Part shown: one piece after another, positions 8,858 through 62,157 of the stretch
Numbering within the stretch: position 1 is the stretch's first letter
Layout of the letters: each line of letters begins with the position of its first letter
Assembly (NCBI GenBank): GCA_905178155.1
Contig: CAJINV010000001.1
Span: forward strand, 4,816,747-4,880,746
DNA from: Amoebophrya sp. A120
Lineage: Eukaryota; Protista; Dinoflagellata
Length of the DNA stretch: 64,000 nt
Direction: 5' to 3'
Made by a program: the position numbers and the translations under genes
Notes under the pieces: model-generated
Seen by the model: the letters and a program-made list of their open reading frames with translations, nothing else
The model's database searches: none
Told to the model about the DNA's origin: nothing

Positions 8858-11800
8858 GTGGTTCATCACTTGTTTTCGTTGAATGCCGGGGTGGAAGTAG
8901 AGCTAGAGCATCACCATCACGGAGAAAAAGCAAAAGGAGGGCCGTTGGATATCGAGGCCGAAGAGCTAGCCTGGATCCTTGGCGATGACCAGGAGCGGCC
9001 TGTGGAGGCAATAGCAGAGGAACTGGTGGTATCAAATGCAAAAATGTCTGGGTCTGGAAGGTTGGAACTTGTATGTAATGCTAACTTTGGACGCGGCTAA
9101 AAAAATCTTTATGTATTGCATGACCAGCAACAGCAAGAGGAGTCTAGTTTGTGCTACGCTGGGAAGGCATTTGTGATGCGGAGTAGGCATCAGGAAGCCC
9201 TCTAAAAATCTGTGATGCTAGGTCGTGCATTACAGACATCCCGGGCAATGCAAAATATGCAAAGAACCCCGGCAACATTCCAGACCCAGGCACTTTTGCA
9301 CTTGATAGGTGGGCTCGCAGTCGACCATCTTCCAACCCGCTGGAGGGGACGATGAAAACGAAAATAACGGGGGGAAAACCCCACCAGCAAGCGCCGCGCG
9401 CGTGTTCCGCAAGGACCAGTTTTTGAAGTTGGCACATCACTGGAAATGGTTGGAAAAACGGTTGGGAACCGCGGATGAACTTCCGTTCGAGAAAAAGCCT
9501 AAGCTGACCGCGAACTCCGTCCTCCGAGAGCTGCTGAAGTCGACGTCAGATCGAATCCCGTTGGAAAGGAAGAATCCCCACGGACTGCCCGCCGTTTTCA
9601 GCTACGATTTCTGCTGCCGGCGGGTGAAACGCACGAAATTGCCCTTTTTCGTCGTGGGAAACGAGATAAAAACTCTGCCAGAGAAGGAGAACAACACAAC
9701 CATTACGGGAAGTAGTGGCTATAAACAATCTGAACATGGACCAGAAAGTAGAACTACGCAGGAAGATATTCTGTCCAACATTAACTTCTGGAATCGAATG
9801 TTCGAAAAGAACACGAACCGTTTCGATTTTCCGGAGAAAACAGAGCGGTTGCTGACAGCAATAGGAAACTTCGGAAATAAAGTAGACATGGATGTTCTTT
9901 CCTCTGGGCGAGGCTTCCGCCACAAAGTAGAACAGAAAAATGGAAACGTTAACGCTGCACAAGAACTGAGCGCGGAGGACTCATCATCTTCACAAGTGAA
10001 AGTGTCAGCACCAACGGTCGTCAACATGTGGTCAAAGAACGAAATTGTGCGACACCGGCTGTTCCTACGTACGACTGCCCCGAGCATCTACGAGAAGAGA
10101 CTTCGGATCGTGGTCACCATTTCCACAGTGCCGACGAGACTCGAGCTATCGTGAGGAAAAATCCCCCCTCCCCATATCGAAACGAAGTTTCTGATGCTGG
10201 ATTTCCGTACACAAATCAGATTTGTCTTGCAGTAGAGGACTGCAGGCATGTGTCAAGCCTCAGCCGCGAGGTTTTGACGTAGGCGCCTAGCATGCCAAAC
10301 GTGTGTGCTTTAAGTCCAACAGCATCACAAACCGCCTGAAAGATGCGGGGCGCTCTCTGGACTTGCCTCCTTGCAAGACAGACAGGATTTGAGGTCACAA
10401 ATGCGCATCACAAATTTTCAGACCGATACGCTTTCAATATGGGGAGGGGGGATTTTTCCTTACGATACGAGCAGGTGAAGCCCGCCCTGATCTCGTGGTT
10501 ACGGCAGACCTACCCCTATCAAATGTAAAAATGTCTGGGTCTGGCAGAATGCAACTTGTCATGCTATATCTGAAGCATGCAAAAATCTGTGTTGCATGAT
10601 TACCAAAAGTCGTCCAGTTTTGACCAAGTCGCGAGGGAGTTTCTCATGCAGGATAGGCATGAGAGAGATCGCACAGAATCTGTCATGCTAGGTCCTGCAT
10701 TCCAGACCTCATGGGTCATGCAAAAGCTGCATGACAAATCGCGCATTCTTCCAGACCCAGACAGTTTTACATTTGATAACCCCATCGATCAGCTGTACCT
10801 GTTTCTCCCCACCCGGTTCGGTCGGGACGCCGTGCGGTACCGCATTCCAGACTGGCTCCACGAGCTGCAGGAGGAGCATAAACAAGTGCTGGTGCACTTC
10901 TGCCAGGAGTTTTTCGCCGCTACGGCGGTGCTGTGCGTGACCGACAAGGAGCAGGACCCGCAGACCAAAATTCTGCACGCCATGGACGATTCCATCGTGC
11001 ACCCGTGGCTGGTCGAGCGGATGCTGCGTGTCAGTCTCCTGCACCCACAGGCGAGCGGGGCGGTCGTCACCACCTACGCAGTCCACCAGTACTACCACCC
11101 CTACTGGTACGGATGCGTTGCGGGCTACTACTGCCTCCATGAGCGCAGACATTTAGATCACCGGCTTTTCGACGTTGACGGACTCCTACCCTTTCGAGCG
11201 AAGGGAGTGGTTGTAGACGGAGGAAGTGCCTCTGGTGCTTCCAGTGCCGCGGGAGAAAGAACTAGTAACGCCGCTAAAAAGGAGAGCCACAGCGTCGAGA
11301 GGACCGCCACACAACTGTGGAAGAACCAAGCGGCTGTGATCAGGGGTTGCAAAGCAAACGGCGATGATGCGCTGGTGCAGTCTTTTTTGCGTGCAAACGC
11401 AGTTCCGTACGTTGAGCTGCACACAGAATTGGAGGCGGAGCTAAACGAAATCGAGACGGCAGTGATAGCGAAATTACAACATTCTGTGTTCGAAGATCAT
11501 ATCACGAACTCCGAGTGGTTCAAAACTAGAAATACGCAGCAGAAGTTGGGCCACAACTACAATAAAGAACTGCTGCAAGAAGATGAACCGCCACGACCCA
11601 TGGAGAGCCAGGTGCTGTCTTTTCAAAAGGCGAAGCCCGGGCAGATGAATTTGCAGCTGGATTTCGCGCGGCGCCCTGATTCCGGCGGGGAGGGCGGCCA
11701 GAGCCTGCAGGATTTAAACAACAAGAAACTCCAGCGCAGCCGCAGACTGTGCATGCAACAGGACGAAAGCAGCTACTATGGGGAAAAAATAGCTGCGGAA

Positions 11801-13891: not shown

Positions 13892-16800
13892 ATGAGCTCC
13901 GCATTTAACTTTGTCCCGTGTATCATGCATCACCGGAGGGAAGCAGTGTTGTTTCTTTTTGCAGCGGTGGCCTGCGTTGTTTCTGTTTCTGGTCAACACG
14001 TTGATGCTGAGAAAGGTGCCTCACTTCCCGCGGATGCTGATTTCATTGCGAACAAGAACAGCCTTCGGCGAAGAATTTTCCGCGACAGAGAAGGCCATGG
14101 CAAGCCAAGTCTACGCATTTCCGCTTGCGAATCGTCCGCGGAATGGCGATGGTATCTGGAAACCACGCGCCGCTGGAGTCACGCGCAAAGGCCGTGGGCG
14201 GCCCTTGTGGGCGGTGTTGAGACGGCCACGACTTCTACGTCTGATGGAATATTAGAGGGCGATTCCATACAGCAGACGCAAAAAGACGGCGAGGATGTTC
14301 TCGATACCGTGAAGCAGCTCACCTTAGCTTTTGCCCAGGAGTTTGTCGCTTTGGTGCGGGAGTATCAGGGAAACATGCGCGCGATCTCGGAAAAGTTCTT
14401 CGGCGCGCTGGCGGAGGGGCGCATCGAAACCTCCACTCTTGATGGCGGATCAACGCGTGCTGCGCAAGAATCGGCTGCTACTGACGACGAAGGAAATAGT
14501 TTCACCGAACTTCCTTCCGTGACCTTGAACGTGGACTATGAATACTGCTTTTACGGCTACCACACGGCCGTGTATTTGTACGCCTGGATGACGCTCGGTT
14601 CGCAGGAAGTAGAGGGTGGTACAATTATGGACGAAGTCGAAGACCAGCACAATTCGTCGTCGCGTATGGCAGAGAGGGAGATGGCCGTGGCGCTGTTGGA
14701 AAACGTAAACAAAATGACGATGATGGACCTATCCCATGTAGAATTTCTCTGTGCCGCGACGGCCACGCAAGGATAATTACTCCTCGTTTACCACATAGCG
14801 AAATCTTCAGCTGATGCAGCATTTGCCTTTTTCATATACAATCTCTTGTCCTGGTGTTTCTCGGGTAGGTGAAAGTCACACATTGTATAGTTGATGAAAT
14901 GTATGCCGCCAACGGTGGGAGATTGATATTTTCCCTGGGATAGGGCCAGCTTGATTTCCTGGAGGAATTCGATTCTCCGGTGACCACGTGGGATCTGTTG
15001 GTGAACCTGTGGCGGTATCAAATGTGAAAATGTCTGGGTCTGGAAGCTTGTGATGCAAGTCCGTGAACAATAAGTGCTCTGTAATGCGCCGCCAAGCATG
15101 ACAAGTTTTTTCGTGCTTCTGTGATGCGTATTTCGTATGAGAAACTGCGCTTTTGCATGACAGGCAAGAGGATCTCTTGGTGGCCGCGCAATACAGAGTG
15201 CAGAGTCATGCCAGACTAGCATGACAATCTTCCAGACCCAGACATTTTTGCATTCGATAGGCGGCTGGAGCAACGCCCCCCGCTGCGGTTTCTGCTTTCC
15301 CCGGACAGGAAGGAAGAACAGCGCATGCGGCAGTACTCACACGAAGGAGCGTGCCTCAACAGTCCATCACTGCAGGAGTGCCGTCGTGAAGATTCCACTT
15401 CTCCGTCGTATTCAGGTCGAGACCTCCCAGACCCAGAGTCGTCACCATCTTTTTCTACGACTTGGTGGCAGTCTCCTACGGATCTAATCAGAGTTGTGGG
15501 GAAGAACAAGAACAACATCAGGAGTAGGATTCGCAGCAGCGAAGAGAATAAAATGGAAGAAGTTTCGCTTGCTATCGCACACACGGCGTCGGATCGACAT
15601 GGGTTTTCCTGCCTCGTCCGACAGGCAACGTTTCCTGAGTTCACGTCGCCGCACGTACAAATTCTTTTTCATCAACTTGATGCAACTCCTGGAACAAGCA
15701 GCAAAAGCTTCGCAGGAGGTGCACGGGCCGCAACTACAGAGCACGAGCAGCGGCAGATGCAAGTGCTGTACCTGAGCGGGCACTTTGGTCACTTGTATGA
15801 CCCTATGCACGTCATTGAGACGGAATTCGGTGACTGGAAGCTTCACCTGCATGGGGTGCTCTCCTACCACAAAGCCTACTTTCCGCATCTGCAGTCCGGC
15901 GACGCCGAGCTGGTCGAGATGCTCGGGCAGATCCACAAAACGAAGGCCAAGTTGCATGAAGACTGGGAGACGTTGCAGGCCTGGTTTGGCGCGTGGCTCG
16001 AGCGGACCTTCCCGACATCAAGTGCTGCTGGGGAGTCTTCACCACTAGAAAGAACGCGATCAAGAACTAGTCGGAGCATAAATCTCGATGTGGTGCTGTG
16101 TGGACACCCAGTGCTCTGGTGCAAACTGTTTGCGGACTATCCTGCGTCGGAGATCTCGGTGGTGGCCAGTTACGATAACCCCTTCCACTTTCTCGTGCCG
16201 CAAGGGCAAATCGAGCAGTGGCGCCATGAGCTTCGTGATCTAATTCGGCGCCGAAATTACTTTTTCGTCAGTTACACCGCTTACGCCAGCATTCAGCTGC
16301 ACTACATAGCCGACGCAGGGATCGTACCTTGGCAAGCCGTCATGGCCCTGCCGCTCGGAGAGCACTACGCGAAAAAAATGGCAAAAGAAGTGGACGAGCA
16401 TCAAAAAGACCGCGAAGTCGTGCTGGTTCATCCAGGCTCGACTCGTCTATCCGTCGCACGGCGATCCGGACAAGGGGAGCATTTTCAGTTTTCGAGAAAC
16501 TTGAAAATAATAGAGCTCGACTCCACAGGCGGGAACTGGCACGGACCGTCCATCATGCTGCGGAAGATGATCGAAGAGAGCGTGCTATCCTGCGTAGAAA
16601 CGACGTCTCGATTTTATGGTTTTGAGAATTGGATGTTGTAGGCAAGCAGAACTTCCGTGCCACTTACTTATCATGGGATCTAAACAGATTCGTTTTTACG
16701 TAGGATATGGGCCGGGATCCAGGGTGGCTTGCGCCGAGATTGCCGTATCCTGCGTAGAAGATCCGGACTGGCAGGAGTTTCGAACGAACGCTGTGGAACT

Positions 16801-17891
16801 ACTTGGCGCAGCCGCGACGAACAAGGAGGTCCCCGCCTCCGGTCCGCAAGCCAAGAGATTCCGAAAAATGATGGCCCAGACGTTGTTTTTCGATTTCGTT
16901 ATCCTGTGGCCCTACGACATAACGAATATGAAGCTTTCGGAATACTACGCGCTGCGCTTGCCCTATGGCAGTGTCAGGATTGAAATCGTCAAAGTTGAAA
17001 TAGTTTGTCATGCAGAAAATGCAACGCAGAGATTGCCTCTATTGAATTGCAGAGGACGCAAGGGAGGCAGATTGTAGTGCTGGTAAGGGTCGAGAATTGG
17101 GCTGCTGACTAGCATCACAGAGGGGAGCCCCTGCCCTGAACAGCATGACAAACTGGCTTCCGGTACGGACAAGATTTGTCATGCACCGACTAGACACTGC
17201 GGGTCCAGCTGGTATCCATTTTATGCATGACAAACTTTGTCGATTTCAAACCTGACGCTTCCATATGCCCATCTTTGTACACCGGGAATTGTGGCGATAC
17301 ACCCGGCGGGGAAGCCATGCGCTGGGCCCCGGAGGCGTGGACCCGCGGCCGGAGGTGAATGCGAGACTCGAAGACAGGGTCGCAAATTGCAAGCGAGAGC
17401 GAGAAGCGAGTCTAGAACTGCGGATTTCCTCCTCGGATGAACTGTTCGGAAAAGAAGACTCGAGAAAATCATCCTGCACGGACGCTGCACTGTTTGATAT
17501 TTCCCTGACCGGCACCGACGTGGTAGCTAGCGCCTTTGCTGATATTAACGAGAAAAATAACGTCTCAGAAACGCTAGAAGGAACAAGCGCCTTTCCGTAC
17601 GCATTCACCCCGTTCGAGTGGCAGGGCCGGTTTCGCATGGATCCCTACGCGGGCTGGTTCTACGCACGGATCGCCGAATTCGCGCTGCGTCCGCACCTCC
17701 AATACTACCGCAGCGTGCGCGAGCTCGCGGAGGTTGCTTTCGTGCTCGCGGAGGAGAAAAAGCGCACGGGGAGGATAGCACCTCTGGAGAGGATACGAGA
17801 ACAGATGGAAACCTGGTACAGAGATGCAGCGGCAAACACCAAGTCCTTCTGGAAGAAGCTGTTCACGGCTGCGGAGAGAAATTTGGACTAG
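13892..17891 (+). CDS. Secreted or membrane-anchored protein, putative glycosyltransferase-like, interrupted by 4 introners
   Basis: N-terminal hydrophobic segment; frame continuous after removing IEs at 14730, 15016, 16586 and 16964; C-terminal FVILWPYDITNMKLSEYYALRLPIFV resembles the GT-B-like E..A...P motif. Confidence 0.65.
14730..14942. mobile_element. Degenerate introner element, type X (213 bp)
   Basis: tatccca...tgggata termini; DR ggacc/gggcc; removal gives MMDQLDFLEEF. Confidence 0.75.
15016..15259. mobile_element. Introner element, family A (244 bp)
   Basis: Family A TIRs; DR ggcgg; removal gives NLWRLEQ. Confidence 0.95.
16586..16707. mobile_element. Short degenerate introner element, family E-like (122 bp)
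   Basis: tatcctgcgtagaaacg...cgtttttacgtaggata; decayed DR cgtgc/tgggc; removal with 5 nt gives ESVPGSRV. Confidence 0.75.
16964..17265. mobile_element. Introner element, family H (302 bp)
   Basis: TIR tatggcagtgtcaggattgaaatcgtcaaagtt / aactttgtcgatttcaaacctgacgcttccata; DR tgccc; removal gives RLPIFV. Confidence 0.93.
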
Positions 17892-18279
17892 GCGTGGCAA
17901 TAGTGTTGTGCTGAGGCTGACCCACCCGCACCGATGGTGCACCAAGCGCAGGATGAACAAGTGGCAGCAAAGCTTGAGCCCTCGTCACTGGCCGAGCGTA
18001 GGTTTTACACTGTTCATGTCCGGAATATTGAATGCGGTCTGCGTGTTCGGTCAAAAGTCTCACCGTCTGAACAAGTAAGTAAGTACCTAATTTATTACTT
18101 TGGTCGACTTGCTGCTTTCTTCGCGCTGCTGCATCTGGTGACATTGTGATGTCTTCGGTATTTTTTCACTTTTCTTTCTGTTAGTTTTTCTCGTCGTGTC
18201 ACTGTGGTACATGGTAGACGTACAACTTCAGAAGTATGCTCTTGTAGATTTGTGTACGGCCGGAAGAGGAAAAAAGAGC

Positions 18280-20640
18280 ATGTCTGGACGAATCAATTGT
18301 TTTTGTTCAGCGAAGCTCCTAGCTCTTCTGAATTTTCTGCTGCTCGGCATCGTCTCGCGACGAGGTGTTGTATTTGTGTTTTCGGCAGGGGCGAGTGAGC
18401 AGCTGCCTCCGTCTTCTCAGGAACAACATACTGAGGAAGAAGATCAACATGGTCGTCAGCGTGCGGAAGATCATGTTGATGAGGCGTCAGGCCCTGGAGA
18501 TGACGAACATGAAGCCAGACATAATCCGCCGGTGCTCCCCTGGGGGCAGTGTCGTGCTTCGGGGCACCACGACCAGCAGAAAACGACAGACCAGCACACC
18601 GAGGGTGCCGGACGAGAAGATCCGAGAGCCTCGCAGTTCCAGGCTTGGTTTGAGGGCTCACCACAGTGGAACAAAGTGGTGCAGGAGGAGGAATTCGCGT
18701 CTAGTGTCAACACCCGGGACCTGGTCACGGGGAAGCTAAAAAATGTGGGAGGTTCCTCCGCCGAGCTGCGCCGGCAGTTCCTCGACCTGTTCGACCGGCT
18801 GGGACCGCAGCACCGGCGGAAATATTTGGAACTAGGCTGCGGCGTTGGGGAGTCCGTGCGGCTGGCCACCCAGTTTTTCTCTCACGTGTACGTGATCGAG
18901 GGCTTCCGGGACCAGCTGCAATTGTGCAAAAAAGTGGTGGAAAAATCGGCGCCACGGAGCGACCACGTGATCTGGATGCCGATGGACCTTTACGAAAACC
19001 CGGAAGGCTGGGAGGGCGTGCGCGAAAACGGACCCTACGGCGTCATTTTTGTGGACGCCAACCACGGCGCCCGGTGGGTGTGGAGCGACGCGATCAACGT
19101 GCTCGAGATGATCGCAAGAACGACTCCTAGCGCCAATGGTTCGACACCACGTGAAGATCAGGTAGTAAAGCCCTTGGTCATCTTCCACGACTACTGCCTC
19201 CATGGAAGTTCCGAAGTCAAGCGAGTCGTTGACGCATTGCTAGACGAGAGAACTACGACCACGGTGGGCGGCCCCCCGCAAGGTGGAAATAAAGAACATG
19301 GAAGTACGACCAATCATAATGGCAGCACGTCGAGGTCCAAGAAGGTCGGCCTTGGTCTGCTGAATTGTAAGGGCATAGGGGCGATTTGCGACGGCGGTGA
19401 ATACGAAGCAGTGATCTGCGAGCCATCGGATATGCTGCTGCAGAAAGATTGGAAAGAGTTGGGTAGAAGGCTGTCGCTCGTCGAGGTTTTCGACGACGAG
19501 GCCACCCGACACGACGGCAGTCCCTTCGTGGGAAATGAACCGCCGATGCTGAACAAGCTGTCGTCAGGTTCTACTTCAGGGAACGATCATAGTAGTACTT
19601 CTACTGCACCAGCCTTCGGTGACGAGGAGTCCTCGCTTATTCAGTCGTTCGACGACTACTTCCTATCGTGAGGAAAAATCCCCCCTCCCCATATTGAAAG
19701 CGCATCCATCTGAAAATTTGTGATGCAGATTTGTGACCACAAATCGCGTCTGTCTTGCAAGAAGGCAAGTCCAGGCTGCCCGGCACGTTATGCGGGCGAT
19801 TTGTAATGTTGTAGGGCCTACAGGGCAGCCGTCTACCATGCTAGGCGCCTACACCAAAAGGCCCCTACCTAGGCTTGCGAGCTGCGTGCAGTGCTCTACT
19901 GCAGCACAGATTTGATTTGTGTACTGAAATACAGCATCACAAATTTCGTTTTCGATATGGGGTGGGGGCTTTTTTCACTTTGATACTTCCGCTTGCTGCG
20001 ACTCCACTTCCTTGCGAGCTTCTGGCCGATGGAGTACCTGGTGTACCACAACCCGAAGACTTCCACCGCGGACCCGGACAACCTGGGCTTGGTCCTGTGG
20101 CCCAACGACCTCACCGACGTGGCCCGCCACACGGACGGCCGGGACTTTTTGTTTCCGTTGCGCAGCATCAACGAGCTGATGGGCGGGACCCGGGAGTACA
20201 ACAGCGACCTGTCCCACGGGCACCAGTCAGTGGTGTACTTCAACGGCATTGCACGCCACGCCGACCGGTGGAAGATCGCGCGGGAGCACAAAGTCCATTG
20301 GGTGGCCTCGCGGCTGTCCCCCCTGCAAGATGATGTTGACAACGATGTTGACGGGAAGATGAAACCGACCGACAGCGAGGTTAGAAACCAGCCCACGGGA
20401 GCCGTGCGGTTCGAGCACTTTGGGCTGCTGTTTTCGCCGGATTTGGTTTCGGTCGAGATGATCGACCTAGAAACGCGGAAAAAAGTAGGCACCGGGGTTT
20501 GGAGACAGGCATTGAAGAACCAACTCAAGCGGTGGCGCCGGCAGGGCTACTTGGATCAACACGGCCTGCACACGCCCACCAGCTTCCAAGAAGCAAGCAG
20601 AAGGTTTACTGGACTCTTCGAAGTAGCGGACGGGAACTAG
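18280..20640 (+). CDS. Class I SAM-dependent methyltransferase-domain protein with N-terminal hydrophobic segment, 1 introner
   Basis: Motifs YLELGCGVGES, VIFVDANH and LVIFHDY (Methyltransf_24-like); frame joins across the IE at 19664. Confidence 0.75.
19664..19985. mobile_element. Introner element, family B (322 bp), opposite orientation to the other B copies
   Basis: Family B TIRs; DR cttcc; removal gives DYFRLLR. Confidence 0.95.
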
Positions 20641-24500: not shown

Positions 24501-25476
24501 AATAAAGGTGGGAAGAACAAGAATAAAGGTACTAAAAATAAGCAACAGGTGGAACAACAGACAGACGAAGCTTTTGACGAGATCCTGGCAGATTTTCAAG
24601 GCGACTTAAAGAGTCCGGGGTGTCAGGACGTGCTTGATGGACTGCAAGATGCGATCGACACGTACTCGGCTGTGAAGTGCAAGATCAAGAAGGCGTGTCT
24701 GCAGCGCCCCGACAGCAGCGCGCACCTACAGCGATGGCTGCAGTCGATCGAGCAGCGGCGCGACTTCTTCCTGCAGTACTGCAAGACGGACAGCGATTTG
24801 AAGCAGATTCGCGGCATTTTGAACGACAAAATCTCGTCCCACCTGCCAAGCGACACGGCGGATTTTGTCGTCTGGAAAATTCTCCTGGAAGAGTATCCCG
24901 ACAAGGCTATGCAATGGCAAAGTCTAATGCTGCCCCGTCGAGAACGCCCCGGGATGGAATACCTATACTTTTGTTTGATGTTGTTCTGTTCGAGATTCAT
25001 TCCAAATCCAAATCATGTAAACGTTTTGTGCTGTACGGTAGGACTAAGACCACCGTTTCTGTTTCTGCATCGAAAATTTGTGTTGTGAGCACATGAGCAT
25101 TGTTGCGCGTTTGTTTATTCGTCCATGGGAAAGTTTTGCGAGCACAAACTGTTTCAGTACCGAGTTGAGTTCGTCCGGGGTTGGCGCAATTCGCAGTTTC
25201 ATAAAAGCCTTCTTCCGCGTTGATTGGCTGCAGTACATGGAGTATGGGTTGCGCTACTTTCTGCTCAGTGCGGGGCTGGCCAACCAACAGCACGCGGCTT
25301 TTCCCATGTCTCTCGATCTGGTGTCGGACTTTTTGCAGCACGTCCTGCGGCGCAAAAGGAGCCAGCAAAAGGTGGGAAATAGCGGCGCAACACCACCATC
25401 CGGTGCTGCGCAGGCAGCGAGACAGCAGGGCAGCGAAGGGGCAGGGGCGGATGCAGCACAAGTAGAGAAGCAATAG
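21576..25476 (+). CDS. Low-complexity protein with predicted signal peptide; possibly the 5' part of the gene continuing to 37225
   Basis: ORFs 21570 and 23073 join across the IE at 22934; one junction near 24960-25130 unresolved; candidate in-frame GT-AG intron 25462-25805 would link it to the next block. Confidence 0.6.
22934..23141. mobile_element. Introner element, family D (208 bp)
   Basis: TIR tatggagagaaaaaaactgtgtaactgtaact / agttacacttacacagtttttttcttgcata; DR ccccg; removal gives SWPRGAG. Confidence 0.95.
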
Positions 25477-49336: not shown

Positions 49337-52300
49337 ATGGCCGCTGCATCCCAGGAAACAGTTGCACGGAGAACAAATAGTTGTCCCGGCCCGCCGGACA
49401 TCGAGGTTCCACGTATACCCAGCAGCTCAACATCGTCTGCAGATGAGAGGACCGCTACTGGTGACTCGAATTCGAAAAGCACAACGTCGAGCAGCTCGGG
49501 GCCTCCGGAGCAGCCGCAGCAGGCGCAGGGGCACGATCATGTTGAAATAGCACAAAACAACTCATCTGCCGCTGCTGGGAGCACAACAAGAAGGTCTACG
49601 AATGCTGAGGCTCCTGGCGCGTCGGTAAACGATGAACTACAGGCCCCATCCGTAGTTGCACCAGGGGGAGGTGGAACAACGACGAGCACAACAGCTACGT
49701 CCTCTACTAGTAACGCGACCGGAGGGGCAATCATGACGTCGACGGATGTGGCACGAGGACAACAGCAGCGACCCCCAAGCGCACCTCCCCCTGTTGTGGC
49801 TGTGACCGCACCCCCGTTTATTCCCGGAGCCATGCAGCACAACGTCCAAAATATGACTACACTTGTTGGTGGAAACGTCGCAAACAGTGCGGCCACGAAC
49901 GTACTACCGGGTAGTTCGCACCTCCAGCAAGTTGCCCCTGCTTTGCAGCAGCACAGCCTGGTTTCGTCCGTGGTTCAAAGCGCGCACCAGCAGTACTTTG
50001 CCCAACAGGTCGTGCAGCAGCACCAGCAACAAATCATGCAACAGCAATTTCTCGCGCAGCAGCACCACCAGCAGTCTCAACAGCAGCAGATGTTCGCACC
50101 GCAGCAGTCGCACCATCAACTGTTTTTGCAGCAGGCCGCCGCCGGGGTCGTGCGCGGACCAGCCGTCGGCAGTGCGAATTTTGGTGGTGCGCCGCAGCTA
50201 CCCGCAGCACCGGCGTTTCCACCTTTCGGGGACCACCAGCATCTTGTCCCGCCGATGGCGCCAAGACCACCTTCAAATAACTCGATGCAGCCGACGGGTC
50301 CATCCCCGCCAACGGCTTCCGTGGCCAGTATGTTTGCAGCCCCGCCCCCAATCGGTGCAATGGGCGGAGGTGGCGCGAGTAGTACGACAACAACCGGAGG
50401 CGCGAACGCCTCCGTTATTTCCCCGCACCCGTCGATGTTTCCCTCACACATAGGAGGTGGACCACCTCCGGGCATGCTAAGCACCATGGGAATGCCCACT
50501 TCCTCTGGGGGCGGTCCAAGTAGGACTTCTACAGGAATCATAATTGGTGCACCAAACGGGGGAACATCTTCTACATCAATATCCAATGCAGCGATTCCGT
50601 ACTTCCCTACTCCGCCGTGTGGCATGCCTCCCGCGATATTTCAGCCGCAAGCGGCCGGTGGATCGTTATTTCCAGCCGCCCCTACAGCACCGCCTCCTAG
50701 TAACGGACCTATCGGCGCAGCGGATGTGGATAAGGCTCCTCTTCTAGGGCATGGGCAGCAAAACGACAGCAGCACGTCCTCGTGCTCCTTCCGTCCGACT
50801 GCGGTCGAGTTTATTCCTCACCAGATTACATACCCACCGGTCCTGCCTCCAGCTGCCAACACGACAATCGTGAGTAATCTTAACAGCACGACGACCCTAA
50901 ATTACGGAACAAACCGCGATGATCTGAAGGGAATACCTAAAGATATGCCAACAGCGCAACCGACCCTGGGTTCTATGATAATCGGCTCGGAAGCTTCATC
51001 AAGCAATCAAAACGTTGTATCTACGTCTTCGCAGCAGGAGAACAGCAATCACCCGCAGCCGCTTGCCTTGAAGATATCGACCGGAGAAATCAAAAAATTC
51101 GTCCAACCCGCACTACGTCCTCAGTGCAGCCCCGGTGGAGGCCCGACCACGAGCTCTAGCAAGCAGAAGAACGACAACAAGAGTTCGTCGCAAACCTCAG
51201 TTACCGGTGCTAGTACCGCAGGCTCAAGCAATGCCGCAAGTAGCCAGTCTTCCGGTTCCAAGCTTTCTTCTACGTCTCCACAGCGAAGACCACAACTCGT
51301 GGCAGGGGCTGTGTCCTCAACCTCTTTCGGCAACGAACACTCCATGCCGCCACCGCCCCCGGCGCCCGGTCATCGGACCGGGGAAATGAAGACGCAACAG
51401 CAGCATCAGGATACACGACCTGCGACCTTCACCAACTTTAATGCGCAAGCCATATACCAGCACCAGCAGCAGCAGCGACCGCACCTCGCTGGCGGGGCAG
51501 CGGCGACTGGTACTAGTACCGCGGGGATGAACACCGCGTCTTCGCACAGTACTAGTAGTTCCTATCACCCAGCTGGTCCTGGTCCCAGCGCTTCGTCGTC
51601 GAGCATGCAGATGCAACATAATTGTTCCGGATCCGGCACCAGTGGTAATAGTTACATCGGGCAGCAGCAACATCAAAACCAACAGCAACAGCAATATCAC
51701 CAGAGCAACATGCCCCCGAATAAACAATTGATGCATCAAGCGCAGCGGTCGCAGGTGCGGAAATTCCAGGAAACGTCGAGTGAGTACAACGACTTTTGCC
51801 GCGAGTTTTCGGGGGTGATGAAACTCCAGAACGAAAATCTCTACGGCACCGGGCGCGACCTGAACATCACGGAACGGGCCGTCGCCCGGTGGACGGAAGT
51901 GAACGCCACCGACGAGTTCGTGCAGAATTGGCACGACCAGACCATTTTGATGATCCAAAACTCGCACTACTACCGCAGCCGCGTCGACTATCCCGCGAAA
52001 AAAGTGTTACAGTTACACATTTGTTGTCAATTTAGCAACACAAATTTCTCTGCATAAGAGAGAAAACTTGTAATGCAGAAATCCTACGGGAAAACACCTA
52101 TGAAACGAGGCTCCTATGCATATCCGGCATGAAAGAGCTTGTCTGTCTTGCTTGGCCTGCAACACAATGTGTAACTGTAGCACTTTTTTCTTGCGATATC
52201 GACGTGGATAGCATTCGCCTGCAGGTGCTCAAGGGCGACGCGCGGAACCGCGATTTGATGCCGATGAACAACAGGGGGGGCATGGATCAGCACAACGAGT

Positions 52301-55300
52301 TATCAAAAGGAAAAATCCCCCCTCCCCATATCGAAAGCGAAATTTGTGATGCTGGATTTGAGAACACAAATCAGATTTGTCTTGCTGAAGAGGACTGCAG
52401 GCCTACATCAAGCCTGAGTAGAGAGGTTTTGGCCTAGGCGCTTAGCATGAGAAACGTCTGCGCTGTAGGCCAAACAGCATCACAAACCGCCTGCATAATG
52501 CGGCGGAGCCTGTGTAATTGCCTTCTTGCAAGACAGAGGCCGTTTGTGATCGCAAATCAGCATTGCAAACTTTCTGCGACGTGCCTTTTCGATATGGGGA
52601 GGGGGGATTTTTCCCCTGGATACGAGTGGGGCAGCGCCGAGTGGAGCGGCGACCAGCAGGGAGGAGGAGGTGTCGGGCCGGGGGCGTCCTCAAGTACCTG
52701 CTGGAATAACCGTAGTGGTGCTGGTGGCGCAGGCGCACCCCATAATTGTGCGCCTTACCAAGACAACGCTAGTACACCGCAACGCTTTCGTGCGGTGTTT
52801 CTGGCGGACGACTGGCAGGACGAGCGTGTGTCACACAAGCTGAGCCTGCTCGACTTCGATCCGCAAGAAAAAGAGCTCACCCTGATCAACTACTCGTCCG
52901 TGCTCCCCCCGCGGGCCTTTGCGGCGGGGCACACGGGGAACGAGAAACTCGGCCAGCACCAGAAACGCGCCAAGGGCAAGTTTGGCGATGGCTTGCAGTC
53001 GGCGTGCTCCGTTTTTGCCCGGAAAGGAAAACACATCCGGATCGACAGCGCACCTGGATACCAGTACACCTTTCAGTATCAACTGCAGGCCGGCCTCGAT
53101 AGCGTATTCACTTTGATGAATTTTTTTGGTGGTGCATTTTTGTTTTCATTTCGTTTTCGTCGTTTTTATGTGGGCACTCGCACCTCGTGTTTGTGAGTTG
53201 TACAAACACTGAGTCCAGCAAAGGCTAGCTGATTGTATTTCAACGAAAGTATTTTTCGGAGCAGCCTGCGTTTGCGTATTACATACCTACGTATACCACG
53301 TTGATCTCGTAGAAGGAAACAGAGAAGCTTTACTTCGTCACCAAAAAAAAAACCAGGTTTACACGCTGCATTACAAGTTGTCCGGGACCAGCGAAGTGTG
53401 CACCGCGGGTGGCGGCGATGGGTTTGGCCTCGATTGCGGGGACGACTTCAACTCGGCAACCGACACGCGCGTGCGGCTCCGGGGCGCCAACTTCGATCGG
53501 CAGCGGTACCTCTTTCTGAATCCCGAGGACATGAAAGACCGGTGCTTTCGCCCATTTCTGCGCCAAAAGGAAATGCCCAACAAGTACGAGATCCTCCGGG
53601 GTCCCTGTCTGCGGAATCGGATCTACGTCAAGGGCATGCTGGTGCAGCAGCCGCATTTGGACGACCACGGTGTATGGGGGTGTTTTCAAACGTTTTACTT
53701 TGTCACCTCTGTCACATGAATTCGTGATGCAAGTAAGGCAAAAGTGCAAAGCAAAACAAGGGCGATAAAGCTTGCGCCCCTTCTTGCATTAAAAACTCCT
53801 GACTTCTGCCGTGCTAGTAAATACGTCGAGCACTTGTCACGCGAAGTCGCTTGGTTTTGTGGAGTCTCGGGCTGATCGCAATTTTGCATGGCAAATCGTG
53901 CGACAGAAGACAATGTAAATAACATTTGAGAATCCCATACTCCGCGCGCATTGCCTTGAGCAAAACAGACAAGTACTTCGGGTACAACCTGCTCGAGTTT
54001 GACATGAAAAGCCGCGACCGGGAAAACAGTATCGACATGAGCCAGGAACGCCACGCCATCGTGCACGCCTGGCACGAGGTGCTGTGCAAGGCGTACGTGG
54101 ACAAGAGCGAACGGAGCCAGCGGGAGCACGAGGAGCGCGCCCGGGTGCTGTTCCGCGCGTTCGAACGCGCGCCGGAGTGCTTTGAGTGCAGCGTGATCGG
54201 CAGCTGCCCCGACCGGTATGGAAACGAGATCCGCCAAAAAATGTGGGAGTACTTCAAGAGCTACTACCAGGATCCGAAAAGATGCGCGGCGCCGGGGATG
54301 CCCGTTGCCCACGGAAACGACAGCAGGAAAAAGTACTTCAGAATAAAGCTGAACTTATGTTTAGAAGAAGGTAGCTAGACACGGCTGCAGCACGCGTGGC
54401 CCGTGCTGTTTGGGTCTGATGGATGCGCAACGTTGTTGCATAAAGCGTACTGGAGACAGATGTTGCATAAAGCGTACTGGAGAGTTCTTGTACTGGAGAC
54501 AGATGCAGTTCTCGACATACAAAATGTGAATTTTCTCAAAATCAAAAACAAGAAACCTGCAACAAAAATAAATAACTGCTGCTACCTAAATAGGTTGATC
54601 AAACGGTGTGGATACAATCCGGTGCAATTTCACTCTTCTTTGTGCAACATGCTGGCCTCCTTTCTCCCCGACCTGGAGCAGGAGTGGTTATCCAAGCGCG
54701 CAGTCCTGCTAGAACAGGAGAGCGAGGACGTGTCCCAAAGCGGCAAGATGATAAAGGACATAGCGACCGGGCTGTTCGGGGAGTTTTTTCGAAAACGCAT
54801 CGAGGAGGCGAAGCATGCCTGGAACGTGAAGATGCCCCCAGATGTTGCGAAAAGCGTCCGCGTCAGGGGCGTCGGGATGAAGCTGCAGGGTGGCGGTGGT
54901 ATTAACAGTTCTTCCGGCTCAACAACATCTGCTTCCTCCTCCATGTGGGGTGGCGGCCCCGCAACATCGGCTGCTTTCAGCCCGGTGAATCTGACCGTGA
55001 AAGTGGTCCACAGCCGGAATCGGGAGTGCCGCAGCGAGGTGGCGAGCCTGAGCGGTGACTCGTTGAACTACTTTTCGCTGAGCGGGTTTCCGACCCGGGG
55101 GGAGCGACTCGACGGTGTGTATGAGGTGCGCGAGAACTATGCAAGAAAAAAAAATGTGTTAGTGTAACTGCATCACAAATTTGCTCTACATGACAGAGAA
55201 AATCTGTCATGCGTGGCTTGTAAGGGAAAACACACATGAAAAGAGGACTTCATGGTTGTCTGGCATGACAGTTGTAACGTTGTTGCATGTTCTGCATTAC

Positions 55301-58300
55301 AGAGTTACACTTACACAGTTTTTTTCTTGCATAAGAACCAGGTAATGAACAATGTTTTCACCGCGTGGCAGATCACGAATCCGTACACGTATTACAGTAA
55401 AAAATGCCCCCACTCCCAAACAAGTCGCAAAGATTTGCGATGCGAAGTTTCCAAATGAAAACTTTTTGTCATGCATGAAAGAAGTGCGAATCTTTCTGAT
55501 GCAGATTCTAGGCGTGTATTGCATCGCTTGCATGACAAGCGCCACTCTTTCTGGGGTCTTTTGCAATACAAATTTTTGCTATTCACGATTGGAAACCTGT
55601 GATGCTGATAGATGCAAGAGGGCGAATGTTTCATTTGGAAAGGTTTGCAATACAAATGCTCCTAAGTTCGGGGGTGGGGGCATTTTTCACTTTGATAACA
55701 CGAAACAGAAGTTTCCCGTGAACCCGCAGGGCAATGCTGCCGGCACGACCATGAGCCACACCTACGTCCACAACGAACAACACTTTTTGTACAATGACTA
55801 CGGTAAGTGGCACCTGAACTACGCGAACAAGTTCAGCCGGCTGGGAAACTTCCGCGATTCCCGCCCGCTGGCTTCGTGCATCATGGGATTCTGCTATGAT
55901 TGTGTACAAGTGCAGCTTTTGGTTCCAACTCGTGTGGGTCCCCCTCATTAATTTGCAAATGCAAAAAACCAAATCATAATTAACTTTACTATAGGCACTG
56001 TCTGTTGGGCAAAGAACAGTACAACTTCTCCAATCTTCCGTGCGCAGATTCATTTTCTGTCGTTTCTGGTTTGTTTTGGTTACAGCTGCTGGTCGTCTTG
56101 CTGCTCATGCCATAAGCATCGATCGATGAGGGGCCGCGACGGCTTAGGACCACACGAGTTCTTTTGCACTCTTCGATATCTGGCACAGCAAAGACACCAA
56201 TGGGTGGATCGAGAACACGGCCCCCGTCGGTAACACTTTCAAGGGCAACAATGCGAAGGGGAAGGGAAAGCAGCAAGGCGGTGGTGGGGTTTATAATTTC
56301 GGAACAGCAAATAATGGCGGCGCCGGGGGTGAGCTGAATTCCATTTCAAACAGTAATCAGCGAGGGCAGAATATCCCACGAAAAAAGTGGTCTATGTATA
56401 GTTACACATTTGTTGTCAGTTCAGCAACACAAATTTTCTCTGCACCATGAGAGAGAAAACTTGCAATGCAGAGACCATAAAGGTGGCCAAGAAGACGTAC
56501 GAAATGAGGCTCGAAAGCATTTTGCGCATGACAGAGAGTGTCTCTGTTGCTTCGTCTGCAACAGCACAGTGTGCAACTGTAACATTTTTTTCTTTGCATA
56601 CAGAAGGAGGTGAAAATCGACGTGTGCAGCATGTTCGACCCGAACACGACCGCCCACTTTATGGCGTTCTCAAACGTTACATTCTCAACTGTCACATGAA
56701 TTTGTAATGCAAGACTAGCACAGGTGAGAGGGAGAACCTTGCGCGTCTTGCATTACAGGTTTGATCCGGATTACAGTGCTATTTAGCCTTCCGAGAATTT
56801 GTCATGCGAAGCAGCTTGATCGTCTGGCGGGTCATGGTCATTTTGCATGACAAATCATGTAACAGGTGAGAATGTAACGCTTGAGAACCCCATACACTTC
56901 TGCCTGACGATCAACACCAGCAACGCGAACGGGCGGGAGGACGATTACATCGCGGAGTTCAACCAGAAATTCGTAGGGGCGCAGCACCAGCAGCAGTCGT
57001 CCGCCGTGCACACGGTATGAACTGCAAATATGTCTGGGTCTGGAAGATTGCAGATGTTTGTGATGCAGAGTCTGCGTAAGTAACCCAGAAGAACTAGCAT
57101 GCAAGCCTCAGCATCACAGGTTTGGAGCAGGTTCCTCAATGCCTAATCCGCATGACAAATCCCCTTTGTCGGTGACACGAAAAAGGGGTACTGTTTCTGC
57201 CCATGCATGGCAGATTTTTCTATCACGTAAAATGCGCATCATAAGTTGCAACCTTCCAGACCCAGACATATTTGCAATTCATACACGGTCCCCAGCTACC
57301 AGATGTTTTGGCAGGAGATGGTGAACCAGGTGGAAATCGAGTGCGGCCGCCTACGGTGGTACATGAGCAAGGAGGAGAAGAAGTGCCTGATGCACACCGG
57401 GCTGTCGCAGTTGTGCCAGGGACTCGGGATTCAGACCACCGTGCAAATACAAACGATGCAGGATCTGTTATTCTGAGTAAAAACGTCCCCACCCCATAGT
57501 CAAGGAATTTCTCTGTGCTTTAAATTTGGTCTTTTCCAGTACATAAACACCCCATAGTCAAGATGGGAAAACTGCTAGACAAATCTACGAGCTTAGGTTG
57601 TTGCGCATGACAGGCTTGGCCTCATATTGTAATGCTGTTGAGCTCGTTCGGAAGCATCACAAATCTGGCCCACCGTGCTGATTGGAGCAGTACAAATTCC
57701 AAAACACGACTAGAAGTTGCTTCTCATGGGGCTCCGCATTAGAAACATTTTGAGCATGCGTTTTTGCATTACAACTATGGGGTGGAGACGTTTTTACATA
57801 GGATATCTGTTGAAGGAGCAGGACCTGGACAAGGACGACCAGGATCTTCAAAACGACATATCAAAATGAAAAATCCCCCCACCCCATGTCAAATCGAAGT
57901 TTGTGATGCTGGATTTGCGTACACCAATCAGATTTGTCTTGCTGGAGAGGACTGCAGGCCCATACCAAGCCTGAGCATAGAGGTTTTGGGCTAGGCTCTT
58001 AGCATGAGAAACGTCTGCGCTGTAGGCCCAACAGCATCACAAATCGCCTGCCTAGAGCGGCGGTTGTCTGTGGAGGTGCCTTCTTGCAAGACAGAGATGA
58101 TTTGTGGTCGCAAATCAGCATTGCAAATTTTCTGCTACGTACCTTCTCGATATGGGGAGGGGGGATCTTTCCTCACAATACGACATGTACTACAACGAGG
58201 ACGACGATAATTACCCGCCCGAGGTTCCGCCGTGCTGGGACGACGATGACTACGATGACGAGTTTCCGGTCGGACCGCAGGAGCAAGCCTCCTCGTCCTC

Positions 58301-61300
58301 GCGGATCCCCACCGGAGCCAATAACGCAAACAGCAAGGAGCAGAACACGACCAGTGGCAACAAGAAAGATCTCAATAAAGTAGACCACGACGAAGCACTG
58401 GATCAGCCGCGGCGAACGGCAAGCAACGCAAATGAGGCAATGCACGACAGCAGCAATCCGCTGTTCGAAATTCCGAACATGAAAGACGCGAACGGCAAAC
58501 CGCTGGTTCTTATGCATTGCAAATATGTCTGGGTCTGGATCTGGAAGGTTGCAACTTGTGATGCTGCATGTGGATACTACAAAAATCTGTATTGCATGAA
58601 CAGCAAAAGAGGTCCAGTTTATGCCACGGCGAGAGGGCATTTCTCATGCGGTATAGACATGAGGAAACCCTCACAAAATCTGTGATGCTACGGCATGCAT
58701 CACAGACGTCAGGAGTCATGCAAACTGCGCATGACAAACCTTGCATCCTTCCAGACCCAGACATATTTGCATTTGATAGTTCTGACCAGGGAGCAGCTGG
58801 AAAAGAAGAAGGTCGTCCGGTTTCCCATCAACGACGGAACAGCAGGCGCCGGAACGACCGCCGCGGACGCAGACAAAAAGAAAATCACCTCCAGTATGGG
58901 ATTCTCAATTGTTACATTCTCAACTGTTAATTTAACAGTGTTACATGAATTTCTGATGCAAGAATGGCAACAGGGAAAGGGCGGATCTTGCAACTCTGGC
59001 ATTACAAGTTAGGCACAAACTCCCATGCTGTTTAGCCCTTCCAAAATTTGTCATGCGAGGTAGCTTCACTGTGTGGACGTCGACGTGGACGTCGATGCCC
59101 ATTTTGCATGACAAATCATGTAACAGTTGAGAATGTAACATTTGAGAACGCCATATCCAGCCAGCGGCACGCGTACGAGAGCTACGACCTCGCCCAGACG
59201 CTAGCGGACACGAAATACAACCACAAGAATATTACAATGAAAAATGCCCGCACCCCCGAACTTGGGAGCATTTGTATTGCAAACCTTTCCAAATGAAACA
59301 TTCGCCCTCTTGCATCTATGTATCAGCATCACAGGTTTCCAATCGTGATGAATAGCAAAAATTTGTATTGCAAAAGACCCCAGCAAGAGCGGCGCTTGTC
59401 ATGCAAGCGATGCGATACACGCCGAGATTCTGCATCAGAAAGATTCATACTCCTTTCATGCATGACAAAAAGTTTTCATTTGCGAACTTCGCATCACAAA
59501 TTTCAGCGGTGGGGGGCACTTTTCACTGTAATAAAGAACGATCTGCTAGGGGAGAACGAACAAGACAACGGCTCTGAAGATGCAAACAACTCCGAGGTGA
59601 TCGACCGAAACAAGATGAACTCGTTGAACGTGCCTCACATGAACAAGTGCACACGCGAGCTTTTCTATCCCACGAAAAAACTGTTTCACTGTGAACTTGT
59701 GATGCATGGAATGGAACACAAAGCTATTTCTATTTGTCTTGCTACACGTGCAAGACATTGGATTTTTAAGGGTGTTTCCCCTTGGGAAGTGCGCATGGCA
59801 AATTTTCTGTGCCATGTGTGACAAACTTGTGATGCACATCTTGCAAAATCATCACAGTGAAACAGTTTTTTCCTGCGATATTCTCCGCAGTATCTTTAAT
59901 TTTGACCCTACCCGCCCCACGTGGAACGTAGTCAGTGCGAAGACCGTACGCGTGCAGGGAGAGAATTTTGATGCCGGTGTTGGAGAAGGTACAGCAACTG
60001 GAAGTGCAAGTTCCGCCGCTGTGACTGCTGGAGCTGCAAGTTCATCAAGCAGTAGCAGCTCCTCCTACTTATCGACCAACAATAAATGCGGAAATATTAG
60101 TAAAGGTGCAGATGATGACCCAAGGGTCCCGGGGTCGTCCTCCTACATTGAGTTGGACGTGATTCCCGCGGAGGGCAAGCCGTTCTGGCAGAATACCATG
60201 CTGGACGTCCTGCGGGCGGGACAGGGAAAGCCGATTCTGCTATCAGAAGGAAAAATCCCCCCTCCCCATATCGAAACGAAGTTTCTGATGCTGGATTTGC
60301 GTACACAAATCAGGTGTGTCTTGCAGTGAAGGACTGCAGGCCCATATCAGACCTGAGTAGAGAGGGGCTAGCCTAGGCGTTTAGCATGAGAAACGTCCAT
60401 GCTGTAGGCCCACCAGCATCACAGACCGCAGGCATAATGCGGCGGAGCCTGTAGAGTTGCCTTCTTGCAATACAGACGCGACTTATGGTCACAAATCCGC
60501 ATTACAAATTTTCGGAGGCGTGCCGTTTCGATATGGGGAGGGGGGATTTTTCCTTTTGATATCTGCGGAACCCGCAGGAGCAGGAGGAGTTCCGCAAAGA
60601 GCAGCTCGCTATCAAATGCAAAAATGTCTGGGTCTGGAAATTATCTAGACTTGTCATGCATGTTTTCCATGCCCCATGACGTCTGTGATGCATGCCGTAG
60701 CGTGACAGATTTGTAGAGCGCTTTGTGATACCTCTACCGCATGAGAAACGCCCTCTCCGCGTAGCACAAACTGGAGTCCTCTTCCCTGGTCATGCAATAC
60801 AATTTTTTTCAGAATCCAGCGACATTAGCACTTCCGGTTGGTAGAGCGATCGGCTACCGAGGCACGTCAGGGGGCGTCGCTACTTCAATTCAATTCAATC
60901 CAGCGACAGCATCACAAGTTTAGAATGTTCCAGACCCAGACATATTTGCATTTGATACTTGCCCAGCTTGACGAAGCGCTCCGCGTCCTGAACGCGTGGC
61001 GGGAGCAGATTGCCGACGGCGCCTGCATGGAGGCGGGGGGCTCAAAGGGAAAAGGGAAGAAGTCCTCTGCTTCGACCATCGCCAGTCGCATGGGCATGGG
61101 GATCCCCGACGGCGAGCAGCGGTGGCATACGGAAATAGGGCTACGCGACGATCGCAGTCGCTATCCCGCGGGGTACGAGCCGGAGAGCGACGAGGAGGAC
61201 GAGCAGGACGACACTTCTGATGAGGAAGAGGACGAGGAAGAAGAAGATACTATTACCTCTGCAGAAGAGGATATCACAAATACTACGAGTCAGAAGCTGC

Positions 61301-62157
61301 AACATCAAAGCACTGTGGTCAACATCGACGCAGAAGAAATTACTTTACCCGCAAGAACATCAAACGGAAAGAACGCCGGAGCAACTGCAAACGGAGATGT
61401 TGCGCCTTGTGACTCGCTACAGCACGACGGAGGAGGGCCTCCAAATACAGCACGCTCAAGTTGTAGTAGACCAAAGGAATTATCCCCAGTGGCTATGACG
61501 TATGCCGACCGACTGAAGATGTCAAGAAGCAAGACAACCACGACTAGCAGTAAAACTTCGACTATCAAAAGTACTTAAAAATGTCTGGGTCTGGAAGAAG
61601 AGAAATTTGTCGTGCACATTTTCCATGATCCATGATGTCTGTGACGTATACCATAGCATAACAGATTTTTTGAGCGCCTATCGATGCACATCCTGCATGA
61701 CAAATGCCCTCTACGCGTAGGCAAATTTGACTCATCTTGCTGCTCATGCAATACAGATTTTCTGAGCATCCAAATGCAGCATAACAAGTTTGGCTCTTCC
61801 AGACCCAGACATTTTTGCATTTGATATCGACGTCGGCCTCCAACGCACCGCCCGCTTCCGTGCCAAAAGCGAACGTCCGACCAAACACCAATAGAATCAC
61901 AAAGGAAGATCTCTATGCAAGAAAAAAACTGCGTAAGTGTAAATCTGTGATGCAGAAAATGCAAAACAGTTACACTTGTCATGCTCGACATGCATGATCG
62001 GCTCGCTTCCTCTGTGTTTTCCCTTTCTATCTGCGCATAACAAGTTTTTCCTGTCATAGCAGACAAACTTTCGTTGCAGTTTTCCCAAACGACTTACACT
62101 AACACAGTTTTTTTCTTGGATAATCTCGGCGCTTGGGGTAATCCGGACAGCGACTAA
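49337..62157 (+). CDS. Giant gene: Q/P/S-rich N-terminus plus GHKL (HATPase_c-like) ATPase domain; 18 introners plus at least 3 other introns
   Basis: Frame can be followed across all 18 IEs, GT-AG introns 53104-53356 and 55910-56147 and one intron near 54328-54592, to TAA at 62155; motifs KGKFGDGLQSA, RIYVKGMLV and YFGYNL...SRDR. Confidence 0.75.
51989..52198. mobile_element. Introner element, family D variant (210 bp)
   Basis: TIR tatcccgcgaaaaaagtgttacagttacacatt; DR tcgac; removal gives RVDVDS. Confidence 0.94.
52301..52622. mobile_element. Introner element, family B (322 bp)
   Basis: Family B TIRs; DR cgagt; removal gives HNEWGS. Confidence 0.95.
53673..53939. mobile_element. Introner element, family G-like (267 bp), DR not preserved
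   Basis: tatggg..ttttcaaacgttt / aacatttgagaatcccata; flanks cggtg/ctccg; removal with 5 nt keeps frame. Confidence 0.8.
55138..55333. mobile_element. Introner element, family D (196 bp)
   Basis: TIR tatgcaagaaaaaaa; DR agaac; removal gives RENQVM. Confidence 0.95.
55390..55697. mobile_element. Introner element, family C (308 bp)
   Basis: Family C TIRs; DR acacg; removal gives PYTKQK. Confidence 0.95.
56372..56600. mobile_element. Introner element, family D variant (229 bp)
   Basis: tatcccacgaaaaaagtg...ttttttctttgcata; DR cagaa; removal gives GQKEVK. Confidence 0.92.
56660..56894. mobile_element. Introner element, family G (235 bp)
   Basis: TIR tatggcgttctcaaacgttacattctca; DR cactt; removal gives TAHFCL. 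Confidence 0.95.
57016..57283. mobile_element. Introner element, family A (268 bp)
   Basis: Family A TIRs (tatgaa variant on both arms); DR cacgg; removal gives VHTVPS. Confidence 0.95.
57469..57805. mobile_element. Introner element, family E (337 bp, with a 43-bp insert)
   Basis: Family E TIRs; DR tctgt; removal gives QDLLKE. Confidence 0.94.
57859..58180. mobile_element. Introner element, family B (322 bp)
   Basis: Family B TIRs; DR cgaca; removal gives NDMYY. Confidence 0.95.
58511..58778. mobile_element. Introner element, family A (268 bp)
   Basis: Family A TIRs; DR gttct; removal gives PLVLTR. Confidence 0.95.
58895..59155. mobile_element. Introner element, family G (261 bp)
   Basis: Family G TIRs; DR tccag; removal gives ITSSQR. 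Confidence 0.95.
59230..59533. mobile_element. Introner element, family C (304 bp)
   Basis: Family C TIRs; DR aagaa; removal gives HKNDLL. Confidence 0.95.
59666..59880. mobile_element. Introner element, family D-like (215 bp)
   Basis: TIR tatcccacgaaaaaactgtttcactgtga / tcacagtgaaacagttttttcctgcgata; DR ttttc/ttctc; removal gives ELFRSIF. Confidence 0.92.
60241..60561. mobile_element. Introner element, family B (321 bp)
   Basis: Family B TIRs; DR tctgc; removal gives PILRNP. Confidence 0.95.
60610..60957. mobile_element. Introner element, family A (348 bp, with a 72-bp insert)
   Basis: Family A TIRs; DR ctcgc/cttgc; removal gives EQLAQL. Confidence 0.94.
60825..60896 (+). mobile_element. 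Short nested insert with 12-bp duplication and (TTCAA)n tail; possible truncated non-LTR/SINE copy
   Basis: aatccagcgaca at 60813-60824 and 60897-60908; host length without it is 264 bp, typical of family A. Confidence 0.55.
61563..61826. mobile_element. Introner element, family A (264 bp)
   Basis: Family A TIRs; DR tcgac; removal gives KTSTSAS. Confidence 0.95.
61914..62122. mobile_element. Introner element, family D (209 bp)
   Basis: Family D TIRs; DR atctc; removal gives EDLGAWGNPDSD-stop. Confidence 0.95.

Follow-up and report, generated by a model that had tools for sequence, protein, structure and literature searches.

The introners of a 64,000-nucleotide stretch of the genome of Amoebophrya sp. 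A120 (contig CAJINV010000001.1, positions 4,816,747 to 4,880,746; the whole stretch is referred to here as the window) share one spaced word, the octamer TGTNWTGC, which recurs in every family sampled. In the interpretation offered here, with a probability of roughly 0.65, the octamer is the site on double-stranded DNA to which the transposase or transposases that would mobilise these elements in trans attach by their DNA-binding domain. Some 30,000 introners, in approximately 1,950 families, have been reported in A120 (PMC7789003), for which there is no known mobiliser and no known splicing route.

The exact octamer occurs 146 times in the window (67 plus-strand and 79 minus-strand copies), compared with 20.67 ± 4.42 copies and a largest value of 33 in 100 dinucleotide shuffles. 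The 33 introners, together 9,008 bp, hold 137 of the 146 copies at a density of 15.2 per kb, with nine copies in the remaining 54,992 bp (0.16 per kb), while shuffled element interiors contained 5.0 ± 2.1 copies with a maximum of 11, an enrichment of approximately 27-fold. Each of the 33 elements carries between one and seven exact copies, typically about four, and in the family B element at 52301 the four copies quoted in the original prediction were all found exactly in place (TGTGATGC at 52345, TGTCTTGC at 52378, GCATCACA at 52477 and GCAAGACA at 52528). The fuller site approximates to AAA-Y-Y-TGT-V-A-TGC-W, with TCTNWTGC (28) and TGCNWTGC (13) as common variants, and in motif discovery TGTNNTGC ranked first of all gapped hexamers and occurred in all 14 groups of elements defined by end type (see below). 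No octamer was present in the GT-AG introns at 54333-54593 and 55803-56085, nor in three further intron-like gaps with approximate bounds. The original observation that the word recurs several times per element across the families, and looks sparse in exons and in the two decayed copies, is confirmed, and the common binding site proposed from it is supported, the binding itself being predicted.

The elements were delimited between 9030 and 62122 and assigned to eight families, the family letters being those of this analysis. Twenty-nine were identified without use of the motif, as pairs of inverted ends bordered by direct repeats, and four (22934, 27980, 53673 and 61563) were added by hand from uncovered motif clusters or from reading of the sequence. 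All 33 start with TAT, which was itself a search criterion, and end with ATA. The terminal repeat consists of TAT, about seven loose bases and then a run of A (an A-tract at 11-15 from the element ends, with A at positions 11-14 in 77-91%, group-weighted). The 5-bp target duplication is perfect at 27 elements, carries one mismatch at five and three mismatches at one. [quoted passage not shown] Read depth over the elements in run X1 was hundreds to thousands of times that over unique DNA, a ratio that is not a copy number. The elements of the window are as follows.

9030 to 9307, introner of family A, five exact octamers
10147 to 10467, introner of family B, four exact octamers
10517 to 10778, introner of family A, four exact octamers
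15016 to 15259, introner of family A, seven exact octamers
16964 to 17265, introner of family G, five exact octamers
19664 to 19985, introner of family B, three exact octamers
22934 to 23141, introner of family D, six exact octamers
26359 to 26645, introner of family E, four exact octamers
27632 to 27853, introner of family H, four exact octamers
27980 to 29479, introner of family E, two exact octamers, split by a nested foldback
41141 to 41393, introner of family A, four exact octamers
42240 to 42502, introner of family A, four exact octamers
43141 to 43444, introner of family C, five exact octamers
46185 to 46489, introner of family C, six exact octamers, in the opposite orientation to 43141
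46553 to 46810, introner of family A, four exact octamers, none on the sense strand
51989 to 52198, introner of family D, four exact octamers
52301 to 52622, introner of family B, four exact octamers, at the positions given above
53673 to 53939, decayed family F-like introner, target duplication with three mismatches, one exact octamer
55138 to 55333, introner of family D, four exact octamers
55390 to 55697, introner of family C, six exact octamers
56372 to 56600, introner of family D, two exact octamers, none on the sense strand
56660 to 56894, introner of family F, four exact octamers
57016 to 57283, introner of family A, three exact octamers
57469 to 57805, introner of family E, four exact octamers
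57859 to 58180, introner of family B, four exact octamers
58511 to 58778, introner of family A, five exact octamers
58895 to 59155, introner of family F, three exact octamers
59230 to 59533, introner of family C, six exact octamers
59666 to 59880, introner of family D, four exact octamers
60241 to 60561, introner of family B, four exact octamers, exact removal fits the length of the gap in a run X3 contig (RNA by guess)
60610 to 60957, introner of family A, four exact octamers, gap length in the same contig fits exact removal
61563 to 61826, introner of family A, four exact octamers, none on the sense strand
61914 to 62122, introner of family D, four exact octamers

A metagenome scan with the end pattern of family A returned at least 173 loci (614 kb including overlaps) from one other assembly, with flanks obtained for 80 of them; a scan of viral contigs with the same pattern gave no matches. 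The loci yielded 325 candidates called by ends and duplication alone, from which five longer than 450 bp were set aside and one of 179 bp was dropped as weak, its ends being unlike and the motif absent, leaving 319. The exact octamer was present in 318 of these 319 (318 of 320 counting the dropped candidate) and hence in 351 of the 352 elements of window and metagenome together and in all 14 end-type groups, although 183 of the 352 belong to group A, reflecting ascertainment by the scan pattern, and three groups have only one or two members. Six end types missing from the window (I, J, K, M, N and P; loci L003-L165), with elements of 109-244 bp, also bear the octamer. In this larger sample the density was 15.3 per kb within called elements and 1.8 per kb outside, with 499 of the 680 outside copies aligning to a called element.

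The original prediction recognised that the word would reflect simple homology should the families align as one. Unmasked interiors of different groups share short matches of up to 79 bp, and once the octamer and its two variants were masked a single 18-bp cross-group match was left, such that plain homology fails to account for the shared word. Across 15 aligned clusters the six fixed bases had 2-9% mismatch to consensus, compared with 22% at the free N4 position and 19% in the rest of the interior, and mismatch was lower at the fixed bases in every cluster. The number, order and direction of the octamers vary by family.

The octamers follow a spacing grammar. In 12 of the 14 groups (null mean 1.4, maximum 5) at least one quarter of the elements have copies in the same direction 30-33 bp apart, with a repeat spacing of 31-32 bp, equal to about three turns of the helix. 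Back-to-back copies lie 33-35 bp apart in six groups (null 0.6, maximum 3) and facing copies 46-49 bp apart in five (null 0.7, maximum 4), a back-to-back pair at 15-17 bp not being significant across groups. Inward-pointing copies cluster at 33-35, 41-45, 53-56, 63-65 and 70-78 bp from the element end, with a copy at 33-35 or 41-45 bp in 268 of the 352 elements, and keep a 10.5-bp phase relative to the end (R 0.41, P 0.018 by group-level shifts). The word therefore has the attributes of a subterminal binding repeat, standing at a fixed distance and direction from the end and being selectively conserved, and a fixed word-to-end distance is the usual mark of a transposase site. A rule of the 12/23 kind between the ends was considered and rejected, as the ends pair 34/34, 43/34 or 43/43. 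The first seven bases of the elements often resemble the reverse motif (TATCACA, TATGACA and TATTACA make up 17% of ends, group-weighted) and terminal position 4 is never A; judged on its letters, the element end may be a degenerate copy of the octamer site.

The transcript strand, inferred from reading frames, was available for 148 of the 352 elements and provides a means of distinguishing a DNA site from an RNA signal. Octamers were distributed evenly between the strands (296 sense against 275 antisense, p 0.40) with slots equally well retained (259 of 338 sense against 240 of 318 antisense, p 0.78). An exact sense copy was present in 132 of the 148 elements and absent from 16, with 13 lacking a sense copy even when variants were counted. 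Opposite octamer copies showed no covariation (1500 against 1498 ± 11). The left and right terminal repeats covary (5808 against 5682 ± 13), to which subfamily structure and selection for matching ends may contribute; this covariation includes the loose positions 4-10 (1592 against 1547 ± 13), fitting either end pairing or gene conversion. At the four invariant bases the differences between nearest neighbours climb (2.6% at 3.5% divergence) before reaching a plateau near 5%. This is approximately double the divergence per site measured in the target duplications (2.4%), which accrues only after insertion. Three relics in the window retain their ends with scrambled interiors and no exact octamer.

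14730 to 14942, relic with TAT..ATA ends, duplication with one mismatch, octamer absent even when one mismatch is allowed; 289 + 481 codons opened by exact removal, with an in-frame GT-AG option too
16586 to 16707, relic whose ends are E-like, octamer absent even when one mismatch is allowed; 464 + 290 codons opened by exact removal, with an in-frame GC-AG option
24908 to 25203, relic with no exact octamer and three at one mismatch; exact removal opens 1042 + 89 codons, with in-frame GY-AG options

Because there is no bias between sense and antisense, no covariation between opposite copies, and relics that have ends but no exact octamer, a double-stranded DNA site for the transposition machinery fits better than an RNA splicing mark. 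Between the two roles originally offered for the octamer, mobilisation is thus favoured over a mark for removal by helical spacing, strand symmetry and the pattern of decay, with a strand-specific RNA mark disfavoured by the 13 elements without any sense copy. The further suggestion of a single transposase for all families is less secure, as several related enzymes are equally possible and none was found. In the mechanism proposed here, several transposase subunits would bind octamers on one face of the helix, helping to pair the ends. Continued transposition would be limited to elements with intact sites, such that the octamer would survive as the remaining interior drifts apart. Once an element has inserted, its octamers would be free to decay, and removal from RNA would depend on the paired ends and target duplication, with no role for the octamer. 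To judge only from the ends and duplication length, the probable enzyme is a DDE transposase, either integrase-like (IS3EU/GingerRoot-like) or of the hAT5 kind.

The closest parallels to such an array are found in known transposons. In the hAT element Hermes the subterminal repeats are bound by BED domains, the DNA-binding domain of the transposase (10.1101/2022.09.16.508221), with binding to the octamer being predicted. As here, Hermes has short repeated words inside its ends, in both directions and asymmetric between the ends, but the Hermes word is 4 bp and dense, whereas the introner word, at 8-13 bp, recurs at a fixed spacing of 31-32 bp and is common to families with unlike inner terminal repeats. 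The 5-bp target duplication of the introners is that of hAT5. The TA..TA ends are those of IS3EU and GingerRoot elements (TAYGG in fungal IS3EU; PMC10045372, PMC12730594, PMC6839031), which encode an integrase-like transposase, and the word 'subterminal' was absent from the two of these papers searched for it. Since the TA..TA ends suit IS3EU/GingerRoot but the usual 6-bp duplication of that group does not, and 5 bp suits hAT5, the elements are assigned to neither. A precedent for action in trans is the Emigrant MITE, a non-autonomous element with subterminal repeated motifs, in which Lemi1 binds the terminal repeats and subterminal motifs cooperatively (PMC1636448), although Emigrant/Lemi1 (pogo-like) is a single family of another superfamily and not an intron.

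A number of observations weigh against a transposase site. It has been reported that A120 has no transposase and general mobilisation by transposase has been ruled out (PMC7789003, section 16). In keeping with this, Pfam gave no matches in 27 of the 50 long frames of the window or in five frames inside long elements, and no hAT transposase with a BED finger was among these frames. All three relics have in-frame GT/GC-AG options and may now be canonical introns, such that the relic evidence cuts both ways. Motif decay was 3.9% in elements with mismatched duplications and 3.6% in those with perfect duplications (p 0.75), a comparison of low power. The spacing windows were chosen on the 33 window elements, which are themselves part of the 352 tested, and the facing pair at 15-16 bp seen in the window was not upheld in the larger sample (two groups, null maximum 3). 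The helical phase is modest: its amplitude is greatest at 9.5 bp, and for outward copies the phase is not significant (P 0.25). In groups I, K and M, moreover, most elements are without the first inward copy. No autonomous element was found among the at least 173 loci, the long stretches bounded by ends in the fetched loci having been rejected as candidates on proving to be nested insertions or chance pairings.

The removal of the elements from transcripts bears on the alternatives. Exact removal of the element with one copy of the duplication leaves at least 15 open codons on each side at all 33 sites; the shorter side has a median of 189 codons, compared with 39-49 for out-of-frame cuts, and one 787-codon frame spans 13 element sites. 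An in-frame GT-AG option exists in only seven of the 33. A single contig from run X3, which is RNA only by guess, skips a GT-AG intron and has 46 nt between the pieces flanking 60241 and 60610, exactly as predicted; over a longer gap, covering a further 11 elements and a canonical intron, the fit is within 6 nt, the discrepancy being unexplained. At the decayed element 53673 the same contig departs from the genome sequence where the right duplication lies. The raw RNA runs X9 and X10 gave 88 and 0 reads on the window respectively. Plus-strand reading frames, which cover about 76% of the element-free window, contain all 33 of the young elements, and the long genes of the window are all on one strand.

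As the one serious alternative, though an unlikely one, these data could also be accommodated if a host protein bound the octamer on DNA or chromatin, in either orientation, marking the element for exact co-transcriptional removal. Insertions without the octamer would then break the gene and be purged, keeping the word in every family, as would be consistent with the restoration of plus-strand frames by exact removal at 33 of 33 young elements, with the reported absence of U1 small nuclear RNA from these genomes (PMC7789003) and with the finding that the relics free of the motif all have splice options of canonical type. Strand symmetry and helical spacing would suit any protein that binds double-stranded DNA. 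Set against this, the decayed element at 53673 with its one exact octamer was apparently skipped at the duplication in the X3 contig, single copies are lost about as fast as unconstrained post-insertion decay would predict, and a fixed distance to the element end is the usual signature of a transposase, as in Hermes. Less likely still is that one protein reads the octamer across tens of thousands of introns, both spreading them and licensing their exact removal; removal would then proceed without U1 or GT-AG ends under a domesticated, transposase-like splicing code too diverged for annotation.

Far less probable is an RNA-binding protein that would read UGUNWUGC in the pre-mRNA and license non-canonical splicing. 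The 132 of 148 elements with at least one exact sense copy are compatible with such a protein, but there is no sense bias and sense slots are no better retained, 16 elements have no exact sense copy and 13 none even with variants. Moreover, all four octamers of the group E consensus are on one strand, although insertions of this family occur in both orientations. It is similarly doubtful in the extreme that opposite octamers pair in RNA to extend the hairpin that joins the ends. Predicted pairing is higher at motif bases (0.77) than elsewhere in the interior (0.45-0.70 per element) and folding pairs 72 of the 137 window copies mainly with another copy, but such pairing is a trivial consequence of complementary words. 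In addition to the lack of covariation, identical octamers are rarer in opposite pairs (21 of 73) than in same-direction pairs (28 of 71), in 65 of the 352 elements the exact octamers are confined to a single strand, and a stem has no need of one sequence across families. Rfam gave no matches in the window. Lastly, that the octamer is a functionless remnant of an ancestral element built of 32-bp repeat units, from which the 31-32 bp spacing could have been inherited, has little left to commend it and is already largely refuted: the end pattern TAT-S...AAAA common to all groups makes a distant common origin likely, but the flanks are unaligned across groups while the fixed bases are 2-9% variable and N4 is free, and copy number, order and direction differ between families.

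The elements themselves are already known, as are subterminal repeats as a kind. Inverted repeats starting with TAT and carrying an A-run, in non-canonical insertions within exons, have been described for A120 introners (PMC7789003, PMC12130899), with short direct repeats of 3-5 nt (5 bp in the legend to Fig. S19 of PMC7789003), and element lengths of approximately 109, 150, 209, 235, 260, 280, 305 and 321 bp match the A120 family table. In contrast to the common word seen here, the published families are mostly classed as 'TIR DNA, Unknown' and treated as separate (PMC12130899). Among the 58 A120 rows of supplement file 8 of that study, all of which were compared, the 810-bp family 38 has a 5-bp duplication, TA/TA ends and integrase-like homology and is filed as Ginger-like. 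No description of the octamer or its spacing was found in the passages of PMC7789003 and PMC12130899 compared here, the figures of both and supplement files 13-14 of the latter lying outside the comparison, and a literature search at the level of titles and abstract openings found no description of the octamer, with Roy et al. 2023 (Curr Biol) likewise outside it. What appears to be new is that every sampled family of this class of introns, for which a mobiliser had been declared absent, is united by a single spaced word. That the octamer is common to every family examined suggests one transposon system and not many unrelated ones, and the octamer array could be used as a bait for the missing mobiliser and as a signature by which to search for it or for the full-length element. 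Mutation of the octamer apart from the ends would distinguish the signal for spreading from that for splicing.

Other mobile elements have inserted into the introners. The element that splits introner 27980 is a different transposon and serves as a negative control, sitting in a motif variant of its host to give a 1.5-kb composite.

28203 to 29407, nested near-perfect foldback of 1,205 bp, TAT..ATA ends, 8-bp target duplication, no octamer

Among the metagenome loci, two introners of family A contain inserts (L010:9473-10727 and L073:3862-4492) that belong to a single retroelement-like family, being 70% alike over 249 nt, and have duplications of 21 and 13 bp respectively. Both begin at base 2 of a reverse motif copy, in different slots, and on the strength of these two copies the retroelement may target the octamer and leave the mRNA together with the intron. 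Further nested inserts lie in introners at L035:632-1465, L039:6314-6770 and L002:4142-6029, two of which end in an (ATG)n run joining at a motif copy or variant, and one of which has an 11-bp duplication with its end adjoining a motif copy. Within the window, the reading frame restored across introner 41141 (41100-41560) contains an HPD motif and resembles a DnaJ-type J domain.

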